Below are positions 24,328-48,581 of a stretch of DNA of 51,760 nt, in pieces. The stretch comes from Thermodesulfobacteriota bacterium (GTDB lineage: Bacteria; Desulfobacterota; WTBG01; JAGOGO01): the NCBI GenBank assembly GCA_035256645.1, contig DATEXU010000170.1, positions 1 to 51,760 of the forward strand, given 5' to 3'. The first letter of the stretch is position 1, and each line of letters begins with the position of its first letter. A program made the position numbers and the translations under genes. Under the pieces are notes generated by a model. That model made no database searches, had not been told where the DNA came from, and saw only the letters and a list, made by a program, of their open reading frames with translations.

Positions 24328-24816
24328 ATGAGTTTGAATGATTATCTGAAATGTCCGGGGCTTGATCGTGTCGCAAACGCTGTTCCGGAAATGCGCCTTT
24401 GTCATAAATGCGGAAGCGACGTTGAAATTTGGACAGATGAAAAGAAAGGAAGATGCTCAAAGCGCGGTACAATGATCAAAAACAGAAACCTTCAACCCGG
24501 TGATGAGAAAAAAAGTGAATCATGTCTTCAAAAAGCTGAACATGATCTGAATTTGAAGGAATTGGTTCGATTGGCGCGTTCATCGGGAGCAAGTGATGCC
24601 CAAATAATATTTTCAGGCGACCTTTTAGTTAAAAACGATTTGGCGGATCTTTGCAAAGAACCTCAATGCGAAAATTACGGACTGTCGCTGAGCTGTCCTC
24701 CGCATATTTCCGAACTGATGAAGGTTTGCGGTTGGCCTTTGAATATTAATGACCGTGAACCAGGATCAGGCGCTGACTCAATGTCGTGGGTTGCCGGCCT
24801 GGTCATGGTTGGTTAA
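24328..24816 (+). CDS. Zn-ribbon / DUF2284-like metal-binding protein, apparently C-terminally truncated at a repeat boundary (possible pseudogene)
   Basis: CHKCGSDVEIW...GRC is a ribbon, followed by the DUF2284 signature C-x4-C-x-NYG-x4-CPP (CKEPQCENYGLSLSCPPH). Only 36 aa follow, where I recall the family having a much longer C-terminal part. The stop codon directly abuts the 105-nt repeat. Confidence 0.5.
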   Translation: MSLNDYLKCPGLDRVANAVPEMRLCHKCGSDVEIWTDEKKGRCSKRGTMIKNRNLQPGDEKKSESCLQKAEHDLNLKELVRLARSSGASDAQIIFSGDLLVKNDLADLCKEPQCENYGLSLSCPPHISELMKVCGWPLNINDREPGSGADSMSWVAGLVMVG

Positions 24817-24920
24817 TAGCAAGGCGCCTTCATTTGTATATCTTTGTTGTCTCCTCGTCATACTCCTCGACGTCGATTCCTCGTCCCTGACTCGATCTGC
24901 TTTTGAATGCAACTTGATAT
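24816..24920 (+). repeat. 105-nt interspersed repeat with terminal inverted repeats, copy A
   Basis: atagCAAGGCGCCTTCAtttgtatatctttgttgtctcctcgtcatactcctcgacgtcgattcctcgtccctgactcgatctgcttTTGAATGCAACTTGatat. Near-identical to the copies at 47249 and 47956. Confidence 0.9.
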
Positions 24921-24941
24921 AAGAAGCTCCCTTAAAAGCAA

Positions 24942-33640: not shown

Positions 33641-33985
33641 GTCATTTCCGCTTCGTATTCAGAAAGTATCACACGTCGTTTTTGTGTCATTTCGAAGCGA
33701 AGCGAGAAATCTTTTTTTAATATATTCAATGCAGTAAGATTCCTCACGGAGCCTGTCCTGAGCCAGATTCTTCAGTCGCTACGCTTCTTCAGAATGACAG
33801 AGCGAAGGGTTCGGAATGACATTTTTTTATTGTGACACCGTCCAATTGCATTGGAAAAATGACATTTTTAGAGGAACCCAATAATATTGACGGATTCGTA
33901 AAAAGTCCTGTTTGTCACCCTGAACTCGTTTCAGGGTCTCATAAGTCCTTGATTTTACGAGATGCTGAAACAAGTTCAGCATGAC
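33641..33985. repeat. cluster of short hairpin-forming interspersed repeats (GTCA...TGAC type)
   Basis: Units include gtcatttcgaagcgaagcgagaaatc and cttcagaatgacagagcgaagggttcggaatgac. A 72-nt double hairpin at 33914-33985 recurs inverted at 41825-41896. Confidence 0.8.
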
Positions 33986-34060
33986 ATTTTCTATGGGTTT
34001 CAACTTGTTACGAGAGCGTCAAGAGTAATAATCTTCTAAGAAAATATTGTTGGGGGCGCT

Positions 34061-35441: not shown

Positions 35442-35786
35442 GTGCCCGTTATTACGTGTGGAAATTTAAAAGTTCAGGTGGATGATGAAGGTTATCTGGT
35501 AAACTTTGAGGACTGGAATGAAGATATTGCCTGTGTTCTCGCAGAAAGGGAAGGGATTAGTCAAGAATGTCCCCTTACTGAAGAGAAGATGGATATTTTA
35601 AGGTTTATGAGAGAGTATTACAAAAAGCATAATTCCTTTCCCCTCCTTAAGGCGGTCTGTAAAAATATCCATCAACCGAAAAATTGCACCTACGAGCAGT
35701 TTCCTGACCCGATTAAGGCATGGAAGATTGCCGGACTGCCAAAACCTACTACCGAGGTTTTTGCTTACATTAGACACACCCCTTGA
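35442..35786 (+). CDS. TusE/DsrC/DsvC-family protein lacking the C-terminal Cys arm
   Basis: The GTG start follows AAGGAGG. V..EGYL..FEDWNEDIA..LAEREGI..., HW..I.F.R.YY and KIAGLPKP are family blocks. It ends ...AGLPKPTTEVFAYIRHTP instead of the usual ...PKPTGCV. Confidence 0.75.
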   Translation: MPVITCGNLKVQVDDEGYLVNFEDWNEDIACVLAEREGISQECPLTEEKMDILRFMREYYKKHNSFPLLKAVCKNIHQPKNCTYEQFPDPIKAWKIAGLPKPTTEVFAYIRHTP

Positions 35787-35947
35787 TGCCAAGTCGCCTT
35801 CATTTGCATATCTTTGTTGTCTCCTCGTCAGTTTTCGTAAATCGTAAAAAGTTAAACGTAAGGTGTTAAAACACTTCACGCTTCACGTCTCACTTTTCAC
35901 GTTTTGATCGTCGTCGCCTCGATCTGCTTTTGAATGCAACTCGGTAT
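35786..35947 (+). repeat. interspersed TIR repeat, copy B (variant with a replaced or expanded core, 162 nt)
   Basis: Both ends match the 105-nt family (atgCCAAGTCGCCTTCAtttgcatatctttgttgtctcctcgtca ... tcgatctgcttTTGAATGCAACTCGGtat). The central 31 nt is replaced by 88 nt rich in CACG/TTCACG motifs. Confidence 0.85.
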
Positions 35948-36015
35948 GATCTAAGTTTCTGTCTATAAGACGTGGAATAGCAAATAAAACCTTTCAGTGA
36001 GTCTCAACAGGAAGA

Positions 36016-40223: not shown

Positions 40224-41714
40224 ATGAAGATTTGTCTCATTGATGCTGCGGCAGCGAACGCAAAAAGGTTTTTGCCCCACTGGACCCCCCTGGGACTGGC
40301 CTATATCGCGGCCACGCTTGAACAAGGGGGTCACGAAGTTTTAATCATAGAGCGGGATGTTCTCTTTAGAAAAAATCGGCTGAGTATCGACAAGGTTGAC
40401 CACATAATGGAGGAAAGGCTCAGGTTTTTCGGCCCCGATTTAATCGGGCTGAGCTCGGCCTCAGAGTTGTTTCCGGATGTAGTGAAATCAGCCCGCATTG
40501 CCAAGACACTTTTTCCTGGTATTCCGGTGGTGTATGGGGGGCACCATGCAAGCGCTGTGTTCACCGAGGCGCTCGAGACATGTAGTGATATTGACATTGT
40601 TGCCGCAGGCGAAGGAGAGGCAACCATGCTTGAATTAGCTAATGGCGCGCGTTATGAGGAGGTTAAGGGTATTTGCTTTAGAAGCGGCGAATCATTAGCC
40701 AAAAATTCTCCGAGGCCGGCCATAGAAGCATTAGATACTTTGCCTATGCCCGCGCGTCATCTTTTAGATATGGATTTTTACACCAAACCATCTCCAAGCT
40801 TGATCAGAAGCGTAACGCTTAAAGCAACAACAATGCTCACTTCCAGAGGATGTCCGTTTAGTTGTAAGTTTTGCGTTGAGTCTCTTCCGGTTGGCAAGAA
40901 ACACCGGGCGCATTCGCCAGCCCGCGTTATTGCTGAGCTTGATCATATCTTAAGGAACTATGATGTTGAGGCGATTTATTTTTTGGACGAAGGATTTTTA
41001 ACCAATGAGCCGAGGGTGAGAGGGTTTTGTGAGATAATGATCAGAGATGGCTACAATCAGAAGGTGAAATGGGCCGCCCAGGTAAGGGTTGATGTTTTGG
41101 ACCCGGATTTGTTGAAGCTGATGAAAGAAGCCGGTTGTATTCAGCTGGAATGTGGCTTTGAAACCGCCTCGGATCGTTTATTGAAAAACGTTAACAAAAA
41201 AACCTCTCAGCAGAAAAACCGAGAGATTGTAGCCTTGATTAAAGCAAACGGTATTCGATGTCTCGCCTATATCATTGCGGGCTTGCCGGGAGAAACCGAG
41301 GAAGAATTCCAGGCTTCGATTGAATTTATCAAGACTTCAGGGGTAGATGCAGTGTCTTTTTCGCAGTTTGTTCCCCACCCCGGATCTGTTTTCTATAATG
41401 AATTGACCCAAAGGGGGGTGCTTCAAAAAGGATTTTGGGAACAGGGTTGGGAAGGTTATAACAACATGAATTTTTCGGCAATGCCCGATGAGCGAGCCAA
41501 GGCACTATATGATCAAGCTCTGAAAAAAGTAATTAAACCTATCAATACAAAAGATCGGATGATGCATATTTCTCTGGGGCAGATGATAAAGAATACCTCC
41601 TTTCGCGAATTGGTCTCGAGAGTTTTTAATGCCCCGCTTTCGTTACCAAGATTTCTTTTTAATTGGATCAAAACAAGGCTTTTGAAAACCGTCCAACCCA
41701 GATCGCGCAGATAA
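40224..41714 (+). CDS. B12-binding-domain radical SAM protein
   Basis: It has an N-terminal Rossmann-like cobalamin-binding domain (KICLID...PLGLAYIAATLEQGGHEV). The CxxxCxxC cluster is TSRGCPFSCKFCVE. 496 aa. Confidence 0.85.
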   Translation: MKICLIDAAAANAKRFLPHWTPLGLAYIAATLEQGGHEVLIIERDVLFRKNRLSIDKVDHIMEERLRFFGPDLIGLSSASELFPDVVKSARIAKTLFPGIPVVYGGHHASAVFTEALETCSDIDIVAAGEGEATMLELANGARYEEVKGICFRSGESLAKNSPRPAIEALDTLPMPARHLLDMDFYTKPSPSLIRSVTLKATTMLTSRGCPFSCKFCVESLPVGKKHRAHSPARVIAELDHILRNYDVEAIYFLDEGFLTNEPRVRGFCEIMIRDGYNQKVKWAAQVRVDVLDPDLLKLMKEAGCIQLECGFETASDRLLKNVNKKTSQQKNREIVALIKANGIRCLAYIIAGLPGETEEEFQASIEFIKTSGVDAVSFSQFVPHPGSVFYNELTQRGVLQKGFWEQGWEGYNNMNFSAMPDERAKALYDQALKKVIKPINTKDRMMHISLGQMIKNTSFRELVSRVFNAPLSLPRFLFNWIKTRLLKTVQPRSRR

Positions 41715-41824
41715 GTCTTTCGCAAACGTCCGAAAAAACCTCTTGCTTTTCTTAAGAGAAGCCCTTCCAATCGCAGTGCTTCTCATAACGAGACTTTTGC
41801 AAAAGTCATGAAATAGCCCGTCAT

Positions 41825-41896
41825 GTCATGCTGAACTTGTTTCAGCATCTAATAAAACCAACGTGTTCTGAGACCCTGAAACGAGTTCAGGGTGAC
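41825..41896. repeat. 72-nt double-hairpin repeat (inverted copy of 33914-33985)
   Basis: gtcATGCTGAActtgtTTCAGCATct...gagACCCTGAAacgagTTCAGGGTgac. Both 8-bp hairpins are identical to the copy at 33.9 kb, while the central linker has diverged. It sits between two converging operons. Confidence 0.85.
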
Positions 41897-41950
41897 AGAA
41901 ACATATTTTGCAGGTATCAAAACCGGAAAAGCCCTGGCATCAACCACTGG

Positions 41951-43054
41951 CTAAGAAAACGAGACACCGGTCTTTTTTTTAATAAGATGTTCAAAATAAC
42001 TGCGGCGTAAAAATATACCCACGCTTTTGTAGAAAAGGAAAGGGTTATCTAACAAGAAAACATGCATATACTTTTTCAAGCTCTTGGGTTGCAATCCGTC
42101 TCTTACCAAGAGAAGCCTGGTGGGCAAAAGTAAGGTCGAGAAAAAACCAGGATTTAATTTTTTCAAAAAAGAATCAGAAATTGGTGTTCTTAGGAGCTGC
42201 CGGCAATAGGCGAGGCAGTAGTAGAGCGCTTTGCGGCAATGATTTTCGCGGGCATACATTGCAATATGCTCCCAATCAATAACAGCCTCATATTTTCTTA
42301 TGAGGAGGTCTATATCGCAAAACATCATCAACCGGTCAAAGTTATGGTTGGCAGCGCAATGGAGAATGAGAAAAAACAGATTAGCCTCCACCGGGAGGCA
42401 GGGAATAGAGAAGTCGTTATAGTGTACCCATAAGAGGTTATCCCAAAAGCCCTTAAAATCAAAACCGGAAACCTTGGCCCACGGGTTGGCATTAAACTCG
42501 ACATGAAGCTCAACGATCAGTTTTTTCCCTTCATTCGGTTTAACAAATTTGACTTCTCCGATGTAGGTCATCTCGTATTGTTCATAAACAGGGTGGAGCA
42601 GGCAGTACCCGATCTCTTCCAGCAGGGATTTTGCCCGGGTATAGTCTTCCTTTTTTATGAGAAGGTCAAAATCTCCGCCACAGGGCCTGAGCTCTGGTTT
42701 AGGGTATACCAGAGCAGAGAGCCCCAACCCTTTATGAACTGCAAAGGATAGCTCGTTCTGCCCGAGATGAGCCACAATCTCTTTTAAGGCTTTTTCAAAC
42801 AAAAGACCGAGAGCGGAATTGCCAATATATTCTCGGGCAAGACATTTTGTTACCTTTTGGGGAAAGACGATTTGCTTGTTTTGTTGGAGGGCATTATAGA
42901 GGAGGGGGGCTATTCCATGGTAGCTCATCATGGCAGCAACCTTCTCCCAGTCGAGGTTCTGGGATAAGGAGCTGGTGACACCTTCCCAGGACTCGTATCC
43001 AAGGGAAGCCCTCAAAAAGGAAAGAATAAACTGCTGTTCTTTGGTTAGCCACAT
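41951..43054 (-). CDS. NTP_transf_5-type nucleotidyltransferase family protein
   Basis: The ATG at 43054 (MWLTKEQQFILSFL...) overlaps the upstream stop as TAATG. GGDFDLLIKKEDYTRAKSLLEEIGY is the family's catalytic-Asp block. The track ORF extends to 43120. Confidence 0.7.
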   Translation of the reverse strand: MWLTKEQQFILSFLRASLGYESWEGVTSSLSQNLDWEKVAAMMSYHGIAPLLYNALQQNKQIVFPQKVTKCLAREYIGNSALGLLFEKALKEIVAHLGQNELSFAVHKGLGLSALVYPKPELRPCGGDFDLLIKKEDYTRAKSLLEEIGYCLLHPVYEQYEMTYIGEVKFVKPNEGKKLIVELHVEFNANPWAKVSGFDFKGFWDNLLWVHYNDFSIPCLPVEANLFFLILHCAANHNFDRLMMFCDIDLLIRKYEAVIDWEHIAMYARENHCRKALYYCLAYCRQLLRTPISDSFLKKLNPGFFSTLLLPTRLLLVRDGLQPKSLKKYMHVFLLDNPFLFYKSVGIFLRRSYFEHLIKKKTGVSFS

Positions 43055-44088
43055 TAGAAAATTGATTCCACAAGCACGGGGAGACTTTGGATATCGGCGC
43101 CCAGTTTTACTTTGTAACAATCGGTGGATTTTATTAAGTCAAAGATAATGTCAAAGTGCTGTCTGGCGATCTCTTTATCAAAGGCAAGAAGACTGTGGGG
43201 GAGAAAAGTTTTTAGCGCTTCGCTCTTTGGAAAAACTTCTAAGGAACTTTTTTTGACCGCAGAAATCTCCGGGAAGAGAATTAACTTCGGCACACAGGAG
43301 TCCCTCGTGGAGCCGGGATAAAGTTCTTCAGCATTAAAGCTCTGCTTTCTGAGGTTTCGGTTGTCTAAGAAAAGACGATAGCTCCTTAATTCAGGGAAAA
43401 GCTGAATAGTATAATCAGTGACGTCAATTGGCTCGGGAAAAGAAAGAAGCTCCAACCCACCACTTTTATTATACCGCAGCATAGGTCTATCGTCTCCGAG
43501 AAATCCAAACCCCTGCCTTATAAGGGCAACACAGGACGTAGTTTTTCCTGCTCCGGAAAACCCCGGAAATATTATCCCCTGCCCATTTTTTTCTACCCCA
43601 GAACAGTGGGCGAGAAAGTACCCCTTCCCTTTTAATAATTCGGCTAATAAAAAAATAAAAACAAAGCTGGAAATAAGGTTGGGATTAATCGCCTCCGGTT
43701 CTTTTAAATAACCCTCCGCCACACCTTTTTTCATGCTGTAAGAAAAAAGCCCGGTAGTTCCAAAGCCTGCATAATACGTAAAATCATCTTCATTTACATA
43801 GAGGCTCATCTTATCAATTCCAAATTCTTTTATATCGAACAAGTCTTCTTCAGAAGAAGAATACAATAGTTTTAAACCGGAAGGAATTATTCCCTGATGA
43901 GCAATATCATCGGGTTTATCGAAAAAAGTGATAGTTAAACCTTCTGGGGGTGTACTGAGTGTTTTTTCACAAAGAAAATATTCGAGGAGTTTGTTGATAG
44001 CAGAAAAAACATGTAAGTTATTTGAGATAAACTTGAGGGGGATGCCATGAATAAGGTAATGTGCGGTTAAGTGGTTCTTTTTTGTCAA
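43054..44088 (-). CDS. HPr kinase C-terminal-domain-like (HprK-related) P-loop kinase
   Basis: LAHCSGVEKNGQGIIFPGFSGAGKTTSCVALIRQGFGFLGDD matches the HprK pattern H....v...g.GvLi.G.SG.GKS..al.Li.rG..lv.DD. It has a TTG start and no obvious SD. Confidence 0.75.
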   Translation of the reverse strand: MTKKNHLTAHYLIHGIPLKFISNNLHVFSAINKLLEYFLCEKTLSTPPEGLTITFFDKPDDIAHQGIIPSGLKLLYSSSEEDLFDIKEFGIDKMSLYVNEDDFTYYAGFGTTGLFSYSMKKGVAEGYLKEPEAINPNLISSFVFIFLLAELLKGKGYFLAHCSGVEKNGQGIIFPGFSGAGKTTSCVALIRQGFGFLGDDRPMLRYNKSGGLELLSFPEPIDVTDYTIQLFPELRSYRLFLDNRNLRKQSFNAEELYPGSTRDSCVPKLILFPEISAVKKSSLEVFPKSEALKTFLPHSLLAFDKEIARQHFDIIFDLIKSTDCYKVKLGADIQSLPVLVESIF

Positions 44089-44100
44089 TGGTGTGCCTAT

Positions 44101-44129
44101 AAAAAAAGACCCGATTTCTTACGTGGGTC
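44101..44129 (-). terminator. weak hairpin plus U7 tract between the precursor array and the kinase gene (possible attenuator)
   Basis: Minus strand: GACCC-acguaagaaauc-GGGUC followed by UUUUUUU. The stem is only 5 bp. It ends 12 nt before the kinase TTG start. Confidence 0.3.
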
Positions 44130-44280
44130 CTTAAAAATTAAAATTTATTAGACCTGGTCAGGTTCTCGTTCTTGGAAGGTTAGAAAAAACAAGCCTCTTT
44201 TTCTTTCCTCAAGTTTCTTTTATTAGGAAAATCTCGGCTTAAGTACCGTTTGCGCAACTGCCCTAAGACAACCTTGATTA

Positions 44281-44382
44281 CTATCTGGTTGCTACTAATG
44301 CGGTGATGTCCTTGAGATGACCTTCTTTAGCAAGCTCAGGTTTTTCGTAGGGTTCTTTTATTTGAGTTTTGATTTTGTTCAT
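44281..44382 (-). CDS. RiPP precursor-like peptide P1 (33 aa)
   Basis: Own translation: MNKIKTQIKEPYEKPELAKEGHLKDITA/LVATR. An AGGAG RBS is present. Contains the YxxPxLx3Gx5Tx signature. Confidence 0.7.
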   Translation of the reverse strand: MNKIKTQIKEPYEKPELAKEGHLKDITALVATR

Positions 44383-44403
44383 TTTTGCTCCTGCCTTTCG
44401 CCC

Positions 44404-44502
44404 TTAACTTTTTGTCATGCTTTGGGTAACATCTTTGAGGGCCCCTTCTTTGACAAGCGCCGGTTTTTCGTAGGGTTTGACCTCAGGCTTTGTCTTTTCC
44501 AT
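44404..44502 (-). CDS. RiPP precursor-like peptide P2 (32 aa)
   Basis: MEKTKPEVKPYEKPALVKEGALKDVTQ/SMTKS. The RBS is AAGGAGG. Confidence 0.7.
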   Translation of the reverse strand: MEKTKPEVKPYEKPALVKEGALKDVTQSMTKS

Positions 44503-44569
44503 ATTATTACCTCCTTTAATAGCCAAAAATATTATACGCTCCGCTGGGTATTTTGACCTTTGATCCACT

Positions 44570-44680
44570 CTATTTAAAAGTTCCCGGTGCTCCAGCGGTA
44601 ATGTCTTTGAGCTGACCTTCTTTAGTAAGCACAGGTTTCTCGTAAGCTTCCTTTTTCACTTCTAATCTCATTTCCTTCAT
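44570..44680 (-). CDS. RiPP precursor-like peptide P3 (36 aa)
   Basis: MKEMRLEVKKEAYEKPVLTKEGQLKDITA/GAPGTFK. The RBS is GGAGGAGG. Confidence 0.7.
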   Translation of the reverse strand: MKEMRLEVKKEAYEKPVLTKEGQLKDITAGAPGTFK

Positions 44681-44714
44681 TTTAACCTCCTCCTTTAATG
44701 CAAACCAACTAATT

Positions 44715-44825
44715 TTATTTATCAACTAGCGTTGCTTGTCCTGTGATGTCCTTGAGCTGGCCTTCTTTGGTAAGCTCAGGTTTTTCGTAAGCCTCTTTTT
44801 TTACTTCTGGTTTGGCATCCTTCAT
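44715..44825 (-). CDS. RiPP precursor-like peptide P4 (36 aa)
   Basis: MKDAKPEVKKEAYEKPELTKEGQLKDITG/QATLVDK. The RBS is AAGGAGGG. Confidence 0.7.
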   Translation of the reverse strand: MKDAKPEVKKEAYEKPELTKEGQLKDITGQATLVDK

Positions 44826-44938
44826 CTAGATCCCTCCTTTTAATTTTAACAATAAATCCTTTAAGCTCACCGTAACAAGAAATAGACATTATGCAGAAGC
44901 CTTGCCTTGGGAAAACAGTACGATAATAATCCTCTGTC

Positions 44939-45052
44939 TTAATCATTCGGCTTTACTGTTCCCCCCGCAGTAATATCCCTTAGGGTGCCCTCTTTAAAGA
45001 TTTCAGGTTTTTCGTAGGCTTCTTTTTTGACATCTGGTTTAGCATCTCTCAT
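44939..45052 (-). CDS. RiPP precursor-like peptide P5 (37 aa)
   Basis: MRDAKPDVKKEAYEKPEIFKEGTLRDITA/GGTVKPND. The RBS is AAGGAGGG. Confidence 0.7.
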   Translation of the reverse strand: MRDAKPDVKKEAYEKPEIFKEGTLRDITAGGTVKPND

Positions 45053-45165
45053 CTAAATCCCTCCTTTTAATTTTAACAACAAATCCTTTAAGCTCACCTT
45101 AACAAAAAATAGATATTATACAGAAGCCTTGCCTTGGGAAAACAGTACGATAATAATCCTCTGTT

Positions 45166-45276
45166 TTAATCAGACGCAGTTATGTCTCCCGCAGTAATAT
45201 CCCTTAGGTTGCCCTCTTTAAAGATTTCTGGTTTTTCGTAAGTTTCCTTTTTCACTTCTGGTTTAGTTTCTTTCAT
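45166..45276 (-). CDS. RiPP precursor-like peptide P6 (36 aa)
   Basis: MKETKPEVKKETYEKPEIFKEGNLRDITA/GDITASD. The RBS is AAGGAGG. Confidence 0.7.
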   Translation of the reverse strand: MKETKPEVKKETYEKPEIFKEGNLRDITAGDITASD

Positions 45277-45332
45277 CCTAAAACCTCCTTTTAAAAAACC
45301 GGGTTCCCCTTTATTATCAAGGTCCTAAAAAA

Positions 45333-45361
45333 TTTATAAAAGAATATCTTGCTTCTTGTAA
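45333..45361 (-). promoter_or_regulatory. candidate internal sigma70-like promoter upstream of P6
   Basis: Minus strand: TTACAA (45361-45356), 17-nt spacer, TATAAA (45338-45333). Confidence 0.3.
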
Positions 45362-45448
45362 GGTTCAGGGCGAAGATAAATCTACTCCTTCCCCTTTTCA
45401 ACCCTCTGTTTTCGGTAAGATTTAGACTTACACAAGCACCCTAAAGTG

Positions 45449-45556
45449 TCAAACATCTGCTTTGGTTGTAAATGCTGTGATGTCTTTGAGAAGGCCTTCT
45501 TTGGTAAGTATAGGTTTTTCGTAAGACTCTTTGACCTCTGGTTTTGCTTCTTTCAT
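45449..45556 (-). CDS. RiPP precursor-like peptide P7 (35 aa)
   Basis: MKEAKPEVKESYEKPILTKEGLLKDITA/FTTKADV. The RBS is AAGGAGGA. Confidence 0.7.
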   Translation of the reverse strand: MKEAKPEVKESYEKPILTKEGLLKDITAFTTKADV

Positions 45557-45630
45557 CTCGTGAGTTCCTCCTTTTTAATTTGGCTCTCCTTTTTTACCAA
45601 TTTTTTAGAAAATGTCAAGCAATTTTAAGA

Positions 45631-46053
45631 TCACGGATAGACAAAAGTAATTTGATATTCGCCAGAAGGATCGTTTTGTTCAGGAAAATGCCTCCCTTCA
45701 ACAATAAGCCAGGCATGTCCTTTGAGCTTCTCCTCTTCGTTTTTGACCCCAAAAACAAGCTTGACTTTCCTGCCCATTATCCGTAAGTGCCTAAAAAGTA
45801 AAATTGATCTCAGCAAACAGGGATTTGAGCTTCTGAATAAACGAAAAAGGATAAAATTGGTAAATTTTAATATGTATTCAATTTTTGAGTCGTCAGGGGG
45901 TACCTTTTTTTCAGGGTCGAGGAGCTTTAAAAGTTTAGGAAGCTTGATTAGATAAAGAAGAACCTTTATGGCAATCAGGGAAAAGAAAGTCTTAATAAAA
46001 AGAATGATGTCCTTTGGTCTTTTGAAATACTTAATATTATTCAGATTTATCAT
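45631..46053 (-). CDS. transglutaminase-like cysteine peptidase of the lasso-peptide B2 type (Transglut_core3)
   Basis: NPCLLRSILLFRHLRIMGRKVKLVFGVKNEEEKLKGHAWLIVEGRHF matches the family pattern C.{2}RS..l...Lr..G.......GV......HAW.e..G (Cys and His of the catalytic triad). The ATG at 46053 overlaps the PqqD gene by 17 nt. The track start at 46089 is also possible. Confidence 0.75.
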   Translation of the reverse strand: MINLNNIKYFKRPKDIILFIKTFFSLIAIKVLLYLIKLPKLLKLLDPEKKVPPDDSKIEYILKFTNFILFRLFRSSNPCLLRSILLFRHLRIMGRKVKLVFGVKNEEEKLKGHAWLIVEGRHFPEQNDPSGEYQITFVYP

Positions 46054-46333
46054 TGAGTTCGACGAGCCCCTCCTTTTTAAAATTAGCAATCAAGGCAAAA
46101 ACATCTTTTGATGCCTCATCTTTGGTGACATCAAAGCTCTCGGTGAGCAATTCAACAAGCTGGTTAACAGCGATTTTTCCATCCAACAAAGACCAAATAA
46201 ATGTGCCGGTTTTATTGAGGGTATAATAGCTTCCATTTTCAAGGTTTAACAGCACGCTTTTTGATTCAATTTCCTTATGGACTACCTCTTTGCCTTTAGC
46301 GGGGTACTTTTCCGAAAGGTCTTTAGTGTTCAT
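46037..46333 (-). CDS. PqqD-family RiPP recognition element protein (lasso B1-like)
   Basis: 98 aa. VLLNLENGSYYTLNKTGTFIWSLLDGKIAVNQLVELLTESFDV..DEASKDVFALIANFKKEGLV is the PqqD wing-helix pattern. The RBS is AAGGAGG. Confidence 0.8.
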   Translation of the reverse strand: MNTKDLSEKYPAKGKEVVHKEIESKSVLLNLENGSYYTLNKTGTFIWSLLDGKIAVNQLVELLTESFDVTKDEASKDVFALIANFKKEGLVELNDKSE

Positions 46334-46386
46334 TGAGAGCCTCCTTGAAAAAAATCACAATATAAAAAGCTTATAATAGTATTGTT

Positions 46387-47235
46387 TCACCCGGTTACCA
46401 CGACATAATCTTCTTCGCTCTGCGCGCCAAGCCCCAGTTTTTTTGCGAAGGCGATCTGGGGAAGTTCCCAGATGGGCATATCGAGCCGGTTCTTTGCTTT
46501 GAACGACATGAGTATTTTAAGGGCCTCAACGTCCAGGGCAACGAGGTCGGAGGAGGCAAAAATAAGATGTGCTTTTTTTCTCCTTCCTCTTGCCGGCCCG
46601 CCCGTCACCAGACATTTTCTTGCGTCAAGGATAATAAGATCGGGTTTGATGGCGAGATTTATCTCTACCACTTTTTCTTCAAGGCGTTCATCGTGGAGCA
46701 TTCTTCTTGAAAAAGGCTCGGTAAGGCCTACAGCAAACTTAAGGCCCATGCTAAAGCGGGCAAAAGCGTGCGTCTTTAGATTAGAAAGATAAATGATTTT
46801 GTCTGAATCTAAGGCAGCCTTGGCAAGCAAGACAGCCTTAAGGTGGACACCATTGATGGGAACACTTACCCATTCCCCCTCATCAAAGTTGATGAGCTTG
46901 ATCGCAAGTTCTTCTGCCAGCTTAAACACTTTCTTTTTTTTTAATACTTTTTCGGTAGGTTGCCAGGCTAATCCACTGCTTGCTCCGAGAGCGATCTCCG
47001 TGACGCCGGACTCCTGAAGGAGGGTTACTACAGCCCTAATAAATTCAGGATCAGAGGAAGCGGGGTACCGGTCAGGGCTGTTGAAGTTTGCTTTTATGAG
47101 TACTTTATCGTCAGGGGAAACGAACTTGGGAAAACCCCCTATCAATGCTACAGCCTTGTCTACTGCGGCTTTAAGGTCTCCTTTTGCGGCAACCTTGCTT
47201 ACCAGTATTTTTGATTTATTGTTATTAGAAAGCAT
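46387..47235 (-). CDS. DUF362 domain-containing protein
   Basis: 282 aa. DKVLIKANFNSP, SNLKTHAFARFSMGLK, IILDARKCLVTGGP..G and ASSDLVALDVEA follow the DUF362 pattern. Confidence 0.7.
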   Translation of the reverse strand: MLSNNNKSKILVSKVAAKGDLKAAVDKAVALIGGFPKFVSPDDKVLIKANFNSPDRYPASSDPEFIRAVVTLLQESGVTEIALGASSGLAWQPTEKVLKKKKVFKLAEELAIKLINFDEGEWVSVPINGVHLKAVLLAKAALDSDKIIYLSNLKTHAFARFSMGLKFAVGLTEPFSRRMLHDERLEEKVVEINLAIKPDLIILDARKCLVTGGPARGRRKKAHLIFASSDLVALDVEALKILMSFKAKNRLDMPIWELPQIAFAKKLGLGAQSEEDYVVVTG

Positions 47236-47248
47236 GCAGCCATTTTTT

Positions 47249-47353
47249 ATACCAAGTCGCCTTCATGTGCATATCTTTGTTGTCTCCTCGTCATACTCCT
47301 CGACGTCGATTCCTCGTCCCTGACTCGATCTGCTTTTGAATGCAACCTGGTAT
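47249..47353 (+). repeat. 105-nt interspersed TIR repeat, copy C
   Basis: ATACCAAGTCGCCTTCAtgtgcatatctttgttgtctcctcgtcatactcctcgacgtcgattcctcgtccctgactcgatctgcttTTGAATGCAACCTGGTAT. It begins 14 nt upstream of the DUF362 start codon. Confidence 0.9.
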
Positions 47354-47475
47354 TAGAAGTGACATTATAATAAAAACACCTTATCAAAGTTCAAAAAATT
47401 TTTAAAAGGAATTTATAGTGAACGACATAAATAAAAAAGCATCCTTTTTGCCATGCCGTGATCCCCGCCATTGTC

Positions 47476-47570
47476 ATTCCGTGCTTGACACGGAATCTAT
47501 GGGCAGGCAAGATGCAACTCAGTTTCATCACTTCATGGCCACCCTTCTGGATTCCGGCTTTCGCCGGAAT
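47476..47570. repeat. hairpin repeats of the GTCATTCC...GGAATGAC type
   Basis: gtcATTCCGTGcttgaCACGGAATc (47473-47497) and ggATTCCGGCtttcGCCGGAATgac (47549-47573). Confidence 0.75.
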
Positions 47571-47634
47571 GACGTCGGAGAACCGGGGTGGAATGAGAGC
47601 AGTATCTTCTTTGTCAACTTATTTATGTCGTTCA

Positions 47635-47979
47635 CTATAGTTGTCGTTCAATATTTTTAATAAAGGATTTCATTTCGTTCATGCTGATGCCCTTGCAAAG
47701 AATGAGCTTACGGCGAGAGGTTTTCATCTTCAGGATTTCAATGTTGGATTTTCTTATCCGGAGAGCTTGAGATAAAAGCTCGATCAAGGCCTCGTTAGCC
47801 GCACCTTCTACAGGCGGTGCAGTTACTTTAACCTTGAGAGCTCCTTCGCTAAACCCGACAACCTCGTTTTTTTTAGACCTTGGCCGGACAATTACCGGAA
47901 AGGTGACGCCGCTCTCATGGGCTCGGATTTTGAGGGAGATGGTTTTTGGAGCTTCACACCAAGTCGCCTTCATGTGCAT
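47635..47979 (-). CDS. yggU: DUF167 (YggU) family protein; start codon lies inside a repeat element
   Basis: ISLKIRA....FPVIVRPRSKKNEVVGFSEGALKVKVTAPPVEGAANEALIELLSQAL matches the YggU pattern (...v.V.P.a.k..i.g.....lkv.v.apP.dG.AN..l...L...). The only in-frame ATGs (47979, 47973) fall within repeat copy D. Confidence 0.75.
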   Translation of the reverse strand: MHMKATWCEAPKTISLKIRAHESGVTFPVIVRPRSKKNEVVGFSEGALKVKVTAPPVEGAANEALIELLSQALRIRKSNIEILKMKTSRRKLILCKGISMNEMKSFIKNIERQL

Positions 47980-48060
47980 ATCTTTGTTGTCTCCTCGTCA
48001 TACTCCTCGACGTCGATTCCTCGTCCCTGACTCGATCTGCTTTTGAATGCAACGTGGTAT
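47956..48060 (+). repeat. 105-nt interspersed TIR repeat, copy D
   Basis: ACACCAAGTCGCCTTCA...TTGAATGCAACGTGGTAT has an interior identical to copy C. It fills the entire divIVA-yggU gap. Confidence 0.9.
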
Positions 48061-48581
48061 CAGGATTCGCTCGGAGGTTTTTCTTCTGGTTCACGGACTT
48101 CTTTTTCGGAAGGTGATTCGAGGAGTCTTAAGTGGGTTTCTAAGAGAAATCGTAGTTCCTGCTTTAATATTATTTTTTTTCTTTTTAATTCATTGACTTC
48201 TTCCTGGATTTTGACTAACCGGCTGTTGGTTCCCGCGATCATTTTTTCTGCTTGTTCTCGGGCATGGGCAAGAATAAAGGTTGCTTCTTTCTCGGTATTT
48301 GTTTTTAATTCTTCGATAGCTTTTTGAGCATTTTTTTTCATTTCCTCGGACGTAGCCTGAGCCATAAGCAAGGTCTCTTTCAGGGTCTTTTCCATGTTGT
48401 GGTATTCCCCGATGCGCGCTTCTTTTCTTTCCAGCTCTTCTCTCAGTTCCTTGTTTATTTTTACCAGGTCTTCCAGTTCACTGGCTACGGTTTCTAAAAA
48501 AGAGTCAACCTCATTGGTGTCGAACCCTCGGAACCGAACGGAGAACTGTTGTTGTTGAATATCAAGAGGTGTTAGTTTCAT
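48060..48581 (-). CDS. divIVA: DivIVA domain-containing protein
   Basis: MKLTPLDIQQQQFSVRFRGFDTNEVDSFLETVASELEDL followed by a coiled coil. Confidence 0.9.
   Translation of the reverse strand: MKLTPLDIQQQQFSVRFRGFDTNEVDSFLETVASELEDLVKINKELREELERKEARIGEYHNMEKTLKETLLMAQATSEEMKKNAQKAIEELKTNTEKEATFILAHAREQAEKMIAGTNSRLVKIQEEVNELKRKKIILKQELRFLLETHLRLLESPSEKEVREPEEKPPSES

Follow-up and report, generated by a model that had tools for sequence, protein, structure and literature searches.

The window, the whole 51,760-nucleotide stretch of DNA analyzed here, is contig C170 of a metagenome-assembled genome (MAG) designated G000 (2.38 Mb, 288 contigs, 91% complete), which we compared with the genome of the benzene fermenter ORM2a (G001) and with the congeners G002 and G003. 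It contains four copies of a short repeat, all in plus orientation, at positions 24816-24920 (copy A), 35786-35947 (copy B), 47249-47353 (copy C), and 47956-48060 (copy D), exactly where the initial annotation had placed them. Cores of 33 and 23 nt each matched four times in the window, compared with no matches expected from shuffled sequences. Copies C and D, whose interiors had been described as identical, are 99% identical, and copy A is 94-95% identical to both. Copy B is indeed a variant; it measures 162 nt and has the first 45 and last 40 nt in common with the other copies, with a longer and different interior. The motifs reported for the interior were recovered as well, namely the palindrome TCGACGTCGA and two TCCTCGTC repeats (equivalent to GACGAGGA), and the minus strand carries GAGGAG-N11-ATG as reported.

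Each of the four copies has its own triplet repeated on both sides. Copy A, of the 105-nt class, extends over 24814-24922 on the plus strand with its TAA/TAA duplication; ORF 24328-24816, which weakly matches DUF2284, terminates in the left TAA (24814-24816). Copy B, of the 162-nt class, extends over 35784-35949 (plus strand) with a TGA/TGA duplication, and a DsrC-like ORF (35442-35786) uses the left TGA (35784-35786) as its stop codon. Both copies, as counted initially, begin on the final base of these stop codons. Copy C (105-nt class; 47247-47355, plus strand; TTA/TTA) lies upstream of a DUF362 gene that starts at 47235 on the minus strand, at a distance of 13 nt. Copy D (105-nt class; 47954-48062, plus strand; TCA/TCA) covers both the divIVA stop and the yggU start, as had been noticed, and its right TCA (48060-48062), read on the opposite strand, is the TGA with which divIVA ends. 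The yggU (DUF167) ORF occupies 47635-47979 on the minus strand, with the Pfam DUF167 domain from residue 24. The extent of 105 nt first assigned to the element needs a small correction; the element itself stands, but its outermost A and T are part of a target-site duplication, the 3-bp TNA. Without them, the element runs TACC...GGTA and measures 103 nt within the "105" class.

Copies range from 68 to 169 nt, none has a transposase-sized ORF, and the element has no coding capacity. Its terminal inverted repeats are 17 nt long and imperfect, TACCAAGTCGCCTTCA[T] and TACCAAGTTGCATTCA[A], with 15 of 17 positions matching and more than 95% conservation among 210 distinct copies. Every length class consists of a common 45-nt left arm and 40-nt right arm around a variable central hairpin module, and the markers that define arm subfamilies are present across all three length classes. 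The 125 form is the 105 form with a 20-nt hairpin added in the middle of TCGACG^TCGA, and the shorter forms make up a nested deletion series, 125 > 105 > 91 > 79 > 68, whose borders are short CGT/GTCG/CCTCG repeats. The interior of the 162 form is an 83-nt hairpin of heptad repeats unrelated to the 105/125 interior, and an extra form of 153-155 nt with a GC-rich palindrome occurs in ORM2a. The heptad hairpin (CGTAAAN/NTTCACG; window 35830-35915, G000 C224:2833-2899) pairs perfectly, with G-U pairs included, solely on the minus strand (-25.6 versus -16.5 kcal/mol). The similar hairpin at C224 lies outside any copy of the element, and in ORM2a such hairpins are found near copies, not within them.

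To characterize the insertion target, the flanks of the 69 complete G000 copies were aligned. Of these, 65 have T at position -2 and 67 have A at position +2, while the middle base matches on both sides in 61 copies compared with 18 expected. Flanking triplets are identical for 55 of the 69 copies in G000 and for 41 of 42 in the sister species G003. The pooled set of 220 distinct insertions comes from G000, two congeners, and 80 metagenome loci; identical triplets flank 182 of them (83%), and 196 have TNA on both sides. The target is accordingly 5'-TNA-3', which is duplicated upon insertion and sits in a loose, weakly palindromic Y|TNA|R context.

The element is not confined to the four sites in the window. 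A BLAST search with its ends located approximately 77 left and 73 right ends in G000, where the 105-nt class is represented by 28 copies and the 125-nt and 162-nt classes by 16 each, alongside rarer forms of 68, 76, 79, 91, 155, and 169 nt. Copy numbers per genome are about 77 in G000, 48 in G001, and 62 in G003. Comparison of orthologous loci disclosed empty sites with exactly one triplet: site B is empty, with a single TGA, in G001, G002, and G003; site C is empty, with a single TTA, in G002; and at site D the single TCA of an empty site is seen in G002 and G003, the site being unoccupied with a diverged junction in G001. At site C, G003 contains a 126-nt variant in the same orientation and G001 a partial copy. 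For copy A, no empty site could be demonstrated among the congeners, in which about 1.1 kb around the copy has no counterpart. By parsimony, copies B and D inserted in the G000 lineage. On a larger scale, 21 G003 copies could be placed in G000, with 13 sites occupied and 8 empty.

The host range is narrow. The element is present in all four genomes of one genus and absent from all 37 other relatives searched. A 20-mer scan of one genome per species, covering 185,579 species, retrieved only ORM2a (CP113000) and MFD00709.bin.2.91, besides three single hits, which is about the number expected by chance (estimate ~1). At least 120 metagenome contigs carry the element. The host genus comprises uncultured sulfate-reducer-like bacteria and includes the relatives of ORM2a, whose genome is closed and which has been placed in GTDB Desulfobacterota, BSN033, UBA8473 (PMC10190668). 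The ORM2 literature that we searched does not mention the element.

High copy number, target-site duplications, empty sites in relatives, and narrow host range all uphold the MITE-like character proposed at the outset. We conclude that the 105-base repeat is, with high probability, a non-autonomous DNA transposon, that is, a prokaryotic MITE. The family is so far undescribed; the kind of element is itself well known.

The position of the copies relative to genes is not random. In G000, 18 of 69 copies (26%) have a duplicated triplet that serves as the stop codon of an ORF of 70 aa or more, whereas such stops account for 2.7-4.9% of the permissible TNA or YTNAR sites (p < 1e-8), both figures being based on crude ORF-based gene calls. 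The pattern recurs in G003 (13 of 42) and in G001 (5 of 13), and in the window it applies to copies A, B, and D. Since TAA and TGA are themselves TNA triplets and the duplication restores the stop, insertion on a stop codon leaves the upstream gene intact. The excess may reflect either target choice or purifying selection. An orientation bias at stop codons was also considered and discarded, the ratio being 14:4 in G000 but 6:7 in G003.

Copy D illustrates what an insertion can do to a gene start. The yggU ATG (47977-47979, minus strand) lies in the left end of the copy, which supplies a GAGGAG Shine-Dalgarno sequence and the first eight yggU codons (MHMKATWC), giving the predicted N-terminal peptide MHMKATWCEAPK. 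In genomes with an empty site, the sole canonical yggU start is a GTG overlapping the 3' end of divIVA. In G000, the 106-nt insertion frameshifts this old GTG frame into a stop, and the remainder of yggU, which has no other canonical start, shares its frame with the ATG of the element, which GAGGAG precedes by 11 nt. Judged from the reading frames, copy D appears to have severed yggU from its old start, for which the Shine-Dalgarno sequence and ATG of the element would substitute. A metagenome contig (L164) with a 125-nt variant at site D has the same private ACACC end and the same solution for yggU. More generally, the minus strand of the element ends in GAGGAG-N11-ATG-CAN-ATG-AAG-GCG-ACT-TGG-TA, so that a copy landing in phase could replace a lost start codon. 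The suggestion that the element delivers a ribosome-binding site and start codon to downstream genes is therefore borne out in one clear case, yggU, but not as a general function; genome-wide, about one-third of the potential start fusions are in frame, which is the chance rate and indicates tolerance. Copies located inside genes and in frame are few (1-3 of 69). One of them, a 125-nt copy at G000 C80:8183-8307, extends a radical-SAM activase-like gene within its 3' part by 126 nt, equal to 42 stop-free codons in frame, and the VLQQF motif resumes directly after it.

Comparison of orthologous copies revealed an unusually labile centre. Among the sites shared with G003 or ORM2a, orientation is the same in 18 of 18, but only 4 of the 18 agree in length class. 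The 13 G003-G000 pairs are made up of three of the same class, five that differ by nested deletions or insertions, and five in which a 162-type interior is set against a 105/125-type interior. Even within G000, one site is represented by both a 105-nt and a 169-nt form, on two overlapping contig ends that are 97-98% identical. Some orthologous copies nonetheless have private end mutations in common, such as ACACC at site D (G000 and L164) and CGCTTT (C265 and G001 L089).

One way to account for the differing modules would be repeated independent insertion of subfamily members into hot-spot TNA sites after excision. Such a scenario is consistent with the non-random choice of targets, evident in the 5- to 9-fold excess on stop codons, and with the presence, in another lineage, of a second, unrelated MITE within ~10 nt of an orthologous site (G003 L046 versus G000 C248). 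It does not, however, readily explain why orientation is constant at all 18 shared sites, nor why half of the differences fall into the nested deletion series 125 > 105 > 91 > 79. Together with the constant orientation, the shared private end mutations favor exchange between copies in place over re-insertion, which we consider unlikely. Exchange in place would explain how orthologous copies keep their site, orientation, and end mutations while differing in their modules. As a matter of speculation, breakage might be triggered by the central hairpin and repaired from other copies through the 45-nt and 40-nt arms. A wider proposal, in which the element is more than a passive MITE and acts as a recurrent remodeller of gene ends, with its centre exchanged in place among ~70 copies, active targeting of stop codons, and an outward-facing Shine-Dalgarno sequence and ATG, can be put forward only tentatively and is more probably wrong than right. 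The narrower description, a TNA-duplicating orphan MITE with a real stop-codon preference, one clear start donation, and an unusually labile centre, is well supported.

The initial annotation had left room for a structured RNA, and we therefore weighed the possibility that the repeat is primarily a non-coding RNA gene or cis-regulatory RNA read from the minus strand, with dispersal secondary. For the 105 class, both strands form a long hairpin and fold far better than shuffled sequences (z = -5.9 for plus and -6.7 for minus), but any element that has terminal inverted repeats will necessarily form a hairpin. As had been pointed out, the minus strand gains G-U pairing in the terminal stem; the gain falls where the plus strand has A-C mismatches, and it holds especially for the heptad hairpin of the 162 class. 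Compensatory double changes were found at position 22 (C-G to T-A, 17 copies) and position 7 (A-T to C-G, 6 copies); both mark subfamilies, however, and each may represent a single event. One-sided changes that break pairs are commoner among the 210 distinct copies, with 32 A-G changes at position 7 and 14 T-C changes at position 9. Rfam gave nothing at E <= 1 over copies C and D, and in copy B it gave no more than miRNA-hairpin noise below threshold; the only window matches at the gathering score were two tRNAs. Scans for promoter-like or terminator-like sites within the element were negative. With respect to the flanking genes, copies point either way (13 versus 9 in tandem arrangements, with convergent gaps the commonest), and the duplications and empty sites testify to mobility at the DNA level. 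Considering this evidence, an RNA as the primary identity of the repeat is very improbable. Weaker again is the case for a REP/BIME- or REPIN-type palindrome spread by a RAYT (IS200-like) transposase or by local spacer duplication, which would fit a palindromic, intergenic, abundant unit of ~100-160 nt whose partner DDE transposase is absent, but which is hardly credible given that REPINs and IS200/IS605-type mobilization leave no target-site duplication, that an identical TNA triplet lies on both sides in 83% of 220 copies with exactly one triplet at empty sites, and that ~220 distinct insertion sites across several genomes and metagenomes exclude local duplication.

Orphan MITEs are common, and the lack of a cognate insertion sequence is thus compatible with membership in this class. 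The initial annotation had called for a search for a partner transposase with matching ends, and none was found in the four genomes of the genus. Searches of G000-G003 with Pfam and NCBIfam transposase profiles (PF01609, PF13586, PF13359, PF13340, and NF033580) detected only insertion sequences with unrelated ends, and no intact gene of the IS1031/IS427 type is present in these genomes. The only match to NF033580 or DUF4096 near the cut-off (106-109 versus 110 bits) came from a decayed IS5-type relic of ORM2a, which was rejected as a partner because its inverted repeat, ATTTAAAAATTATCCGTAAATAA, is unlike the MITE ends. This IS5-family element (L077 1415-2135) lies ~55 nt from a 124-nt copy of the MITE; it retains an orfA with DUF4096 (108.5 bits against NF033580) but has lost its DDE part to a deletion, and the 23-nt inverted repeats bear no relation to the MITE ends.

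Lone MITE ends in G001, G003, and the 80 metagenome loci all proved to be degenerate copies or chance matches, the metagenome scan for a partner returned MITE copies only, and the search of viral contigs and plasmids was negative. A 1,489-nt unit of ORM2a between MITE ends was also examined as a candidate autonomous partner and set aside, as it encodes a 190-aa lipoprotein-like gene and no transposase. The unit (L066 2001-3489; G001:C1:2029155-2030643) has a left and a right MITE end with TCA/GCA flanks, and may be either a passenger-carrying derivative or two solo ends. With ORM2a closed and G003 in only 60 contigs, loss of the partner in assembly is no easy excuse. As the almost perfect duplications in G003 imply that the element was active recently, the absence of an enzyme leaves this account with a genuine gap.

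The duplication nevertheless gives an indication of the enzyme. The IS1031 subgroup of the IS5 family has a preference for TNA, generates an exclusive 3-bp repeat, and has terminal repeats of ~17 bp (PMC12016507), and its eukaryotic relatives, the PIF/Harbinger superfamily, include groups that duplicate TNA (PMC4482050). The TNA duplication thus points to an IS5-family enzyme of the IS1031 type acting in trans. A DDE transposase of this type, or of the PIF/Harbinger-type relatives, would mobilize the MITE by making staggered cuts 3 bp apart at the target. Mobilization in trans by an IS1031/PIF-type DDE transposase is the best-supported mechanism, by analogy with these systems.

Copies B and C had also been seen as brackets of the accessory region at 36-47 kb. 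This arrangement is a coincidence, as G003 has a collinear version of the region together with an empty site B. A composite transposon formed by B and C was rejected on the same grounds, and also because the segment missing in G002 (~40.5-46.7 kb) is not bounded by copies. The RiPP-type cluster of this region (window ~40500-46700) is present and collinear in G003, whereas G002 lacks it and ORM2a lacks nearly all of it; this patchy presence makes it accessory within the genus, with the MITE copies not forming its borders.

Other repeats were observed nearby. Between copies C and D (window 47414-47639) there is a second MITE, unrelated to the first and ~226 nt long, with terminal repeats TATAGTGAACGACATAAATAA and TA at each junction. 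ORM2a has multiple copies of it; it is absent at the window site in G003 and G002, and it is also nested in a 162-class copy at G000 C157:6247-6652. A third interspersed repeat of ~80-130 nt occurs at window positions 41810-41900 and 33913-33987 and contains the hairpins ATGCTGAA-CTTG-TTTCAGCAT and ACCCTGAA-ACGAG-TTCAGGGT; about 20 further copies are located on other G000 contigs, and it is also found in ORM2a and G003.

To our knowledge, ORM2/UBA8473-type bacteria include the only known methanogenic benzene fermenters. In these bacteria, the MITE family is a major cause of assembly breaks, several G000 contigs terminating within copies, and of strain-level variation, and its insertion polymorphisms are usable as strain markers. 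Annotation of genomes in this genus should expect starts and stops rewritten by the MITE, as exemplified by the yggU start, the stops of roughly a quarter of the flanked genes, and the 42-codon insertion. With this family, a bacterial MITE that duplicates TNA and lacks a resident transposase is well documented, and both the excess on stop codons and the differing modules of orthologous copies provide quantitative observations open to follow-up.

Several known systems resemble the element in part. Rickettsia palindromic elements (RPEs) sit in frame inside Rickettsia genes, a likeness to the 125-nt copy at C80, although in-frame genic insertion is the exception for the present MITE. We know of no report of TNA duplications for RPEs. 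Correia elements duplicate TA, in contrast to TNA here. The Correia/NEMIS elements of Neisseria share with the present MITE a length of ~100-155 bp, terminal inverted repeats that form a long hairpin, dozens to hundreds of copies, length classes defined by an internal segment, a gene-proximal location, and a genome without a cognate transposase (PMC10969869). Unlike the present MITE, in which no promoter-like site was found, Correia elements have sigma-70 promoters together with an IHF site and sites for RNase III (PMC10969869). The two show no sequence similarity and belong to different phyla.

Geobacter belongs to the same broad deltaproteobacterial grouping as the host genus. Chunjie, a MITE found in Geobacter uraniireducens and compared here by its description in a review, is likewise recently active, has size variants of 178-235 bp with conserved inverted and direct repeats, and is mostly intergenic and sometimes inside an operon; it differs in sequence and size (PMC10969869). 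Elements of the IS1031 subgroup are autonomous, with orfA/orfB and a programmed frameshift, whereas the present MITE is without a transposase. The MITE ends, TACCAAGT..., are unlike the ISLrh ends, GAACCTGT..., and the TACC... termini are unlike the GAG/GAA ends reported for IS1031-group elements. The likeness to this subgroup, represented by ISLrh (857 bp, 17-bp inverted repeats), lies in the TNA target, the exclusive 3-bp repeat, and the length of the terminal inverted repeats, ~17 bp (PMC12016507).
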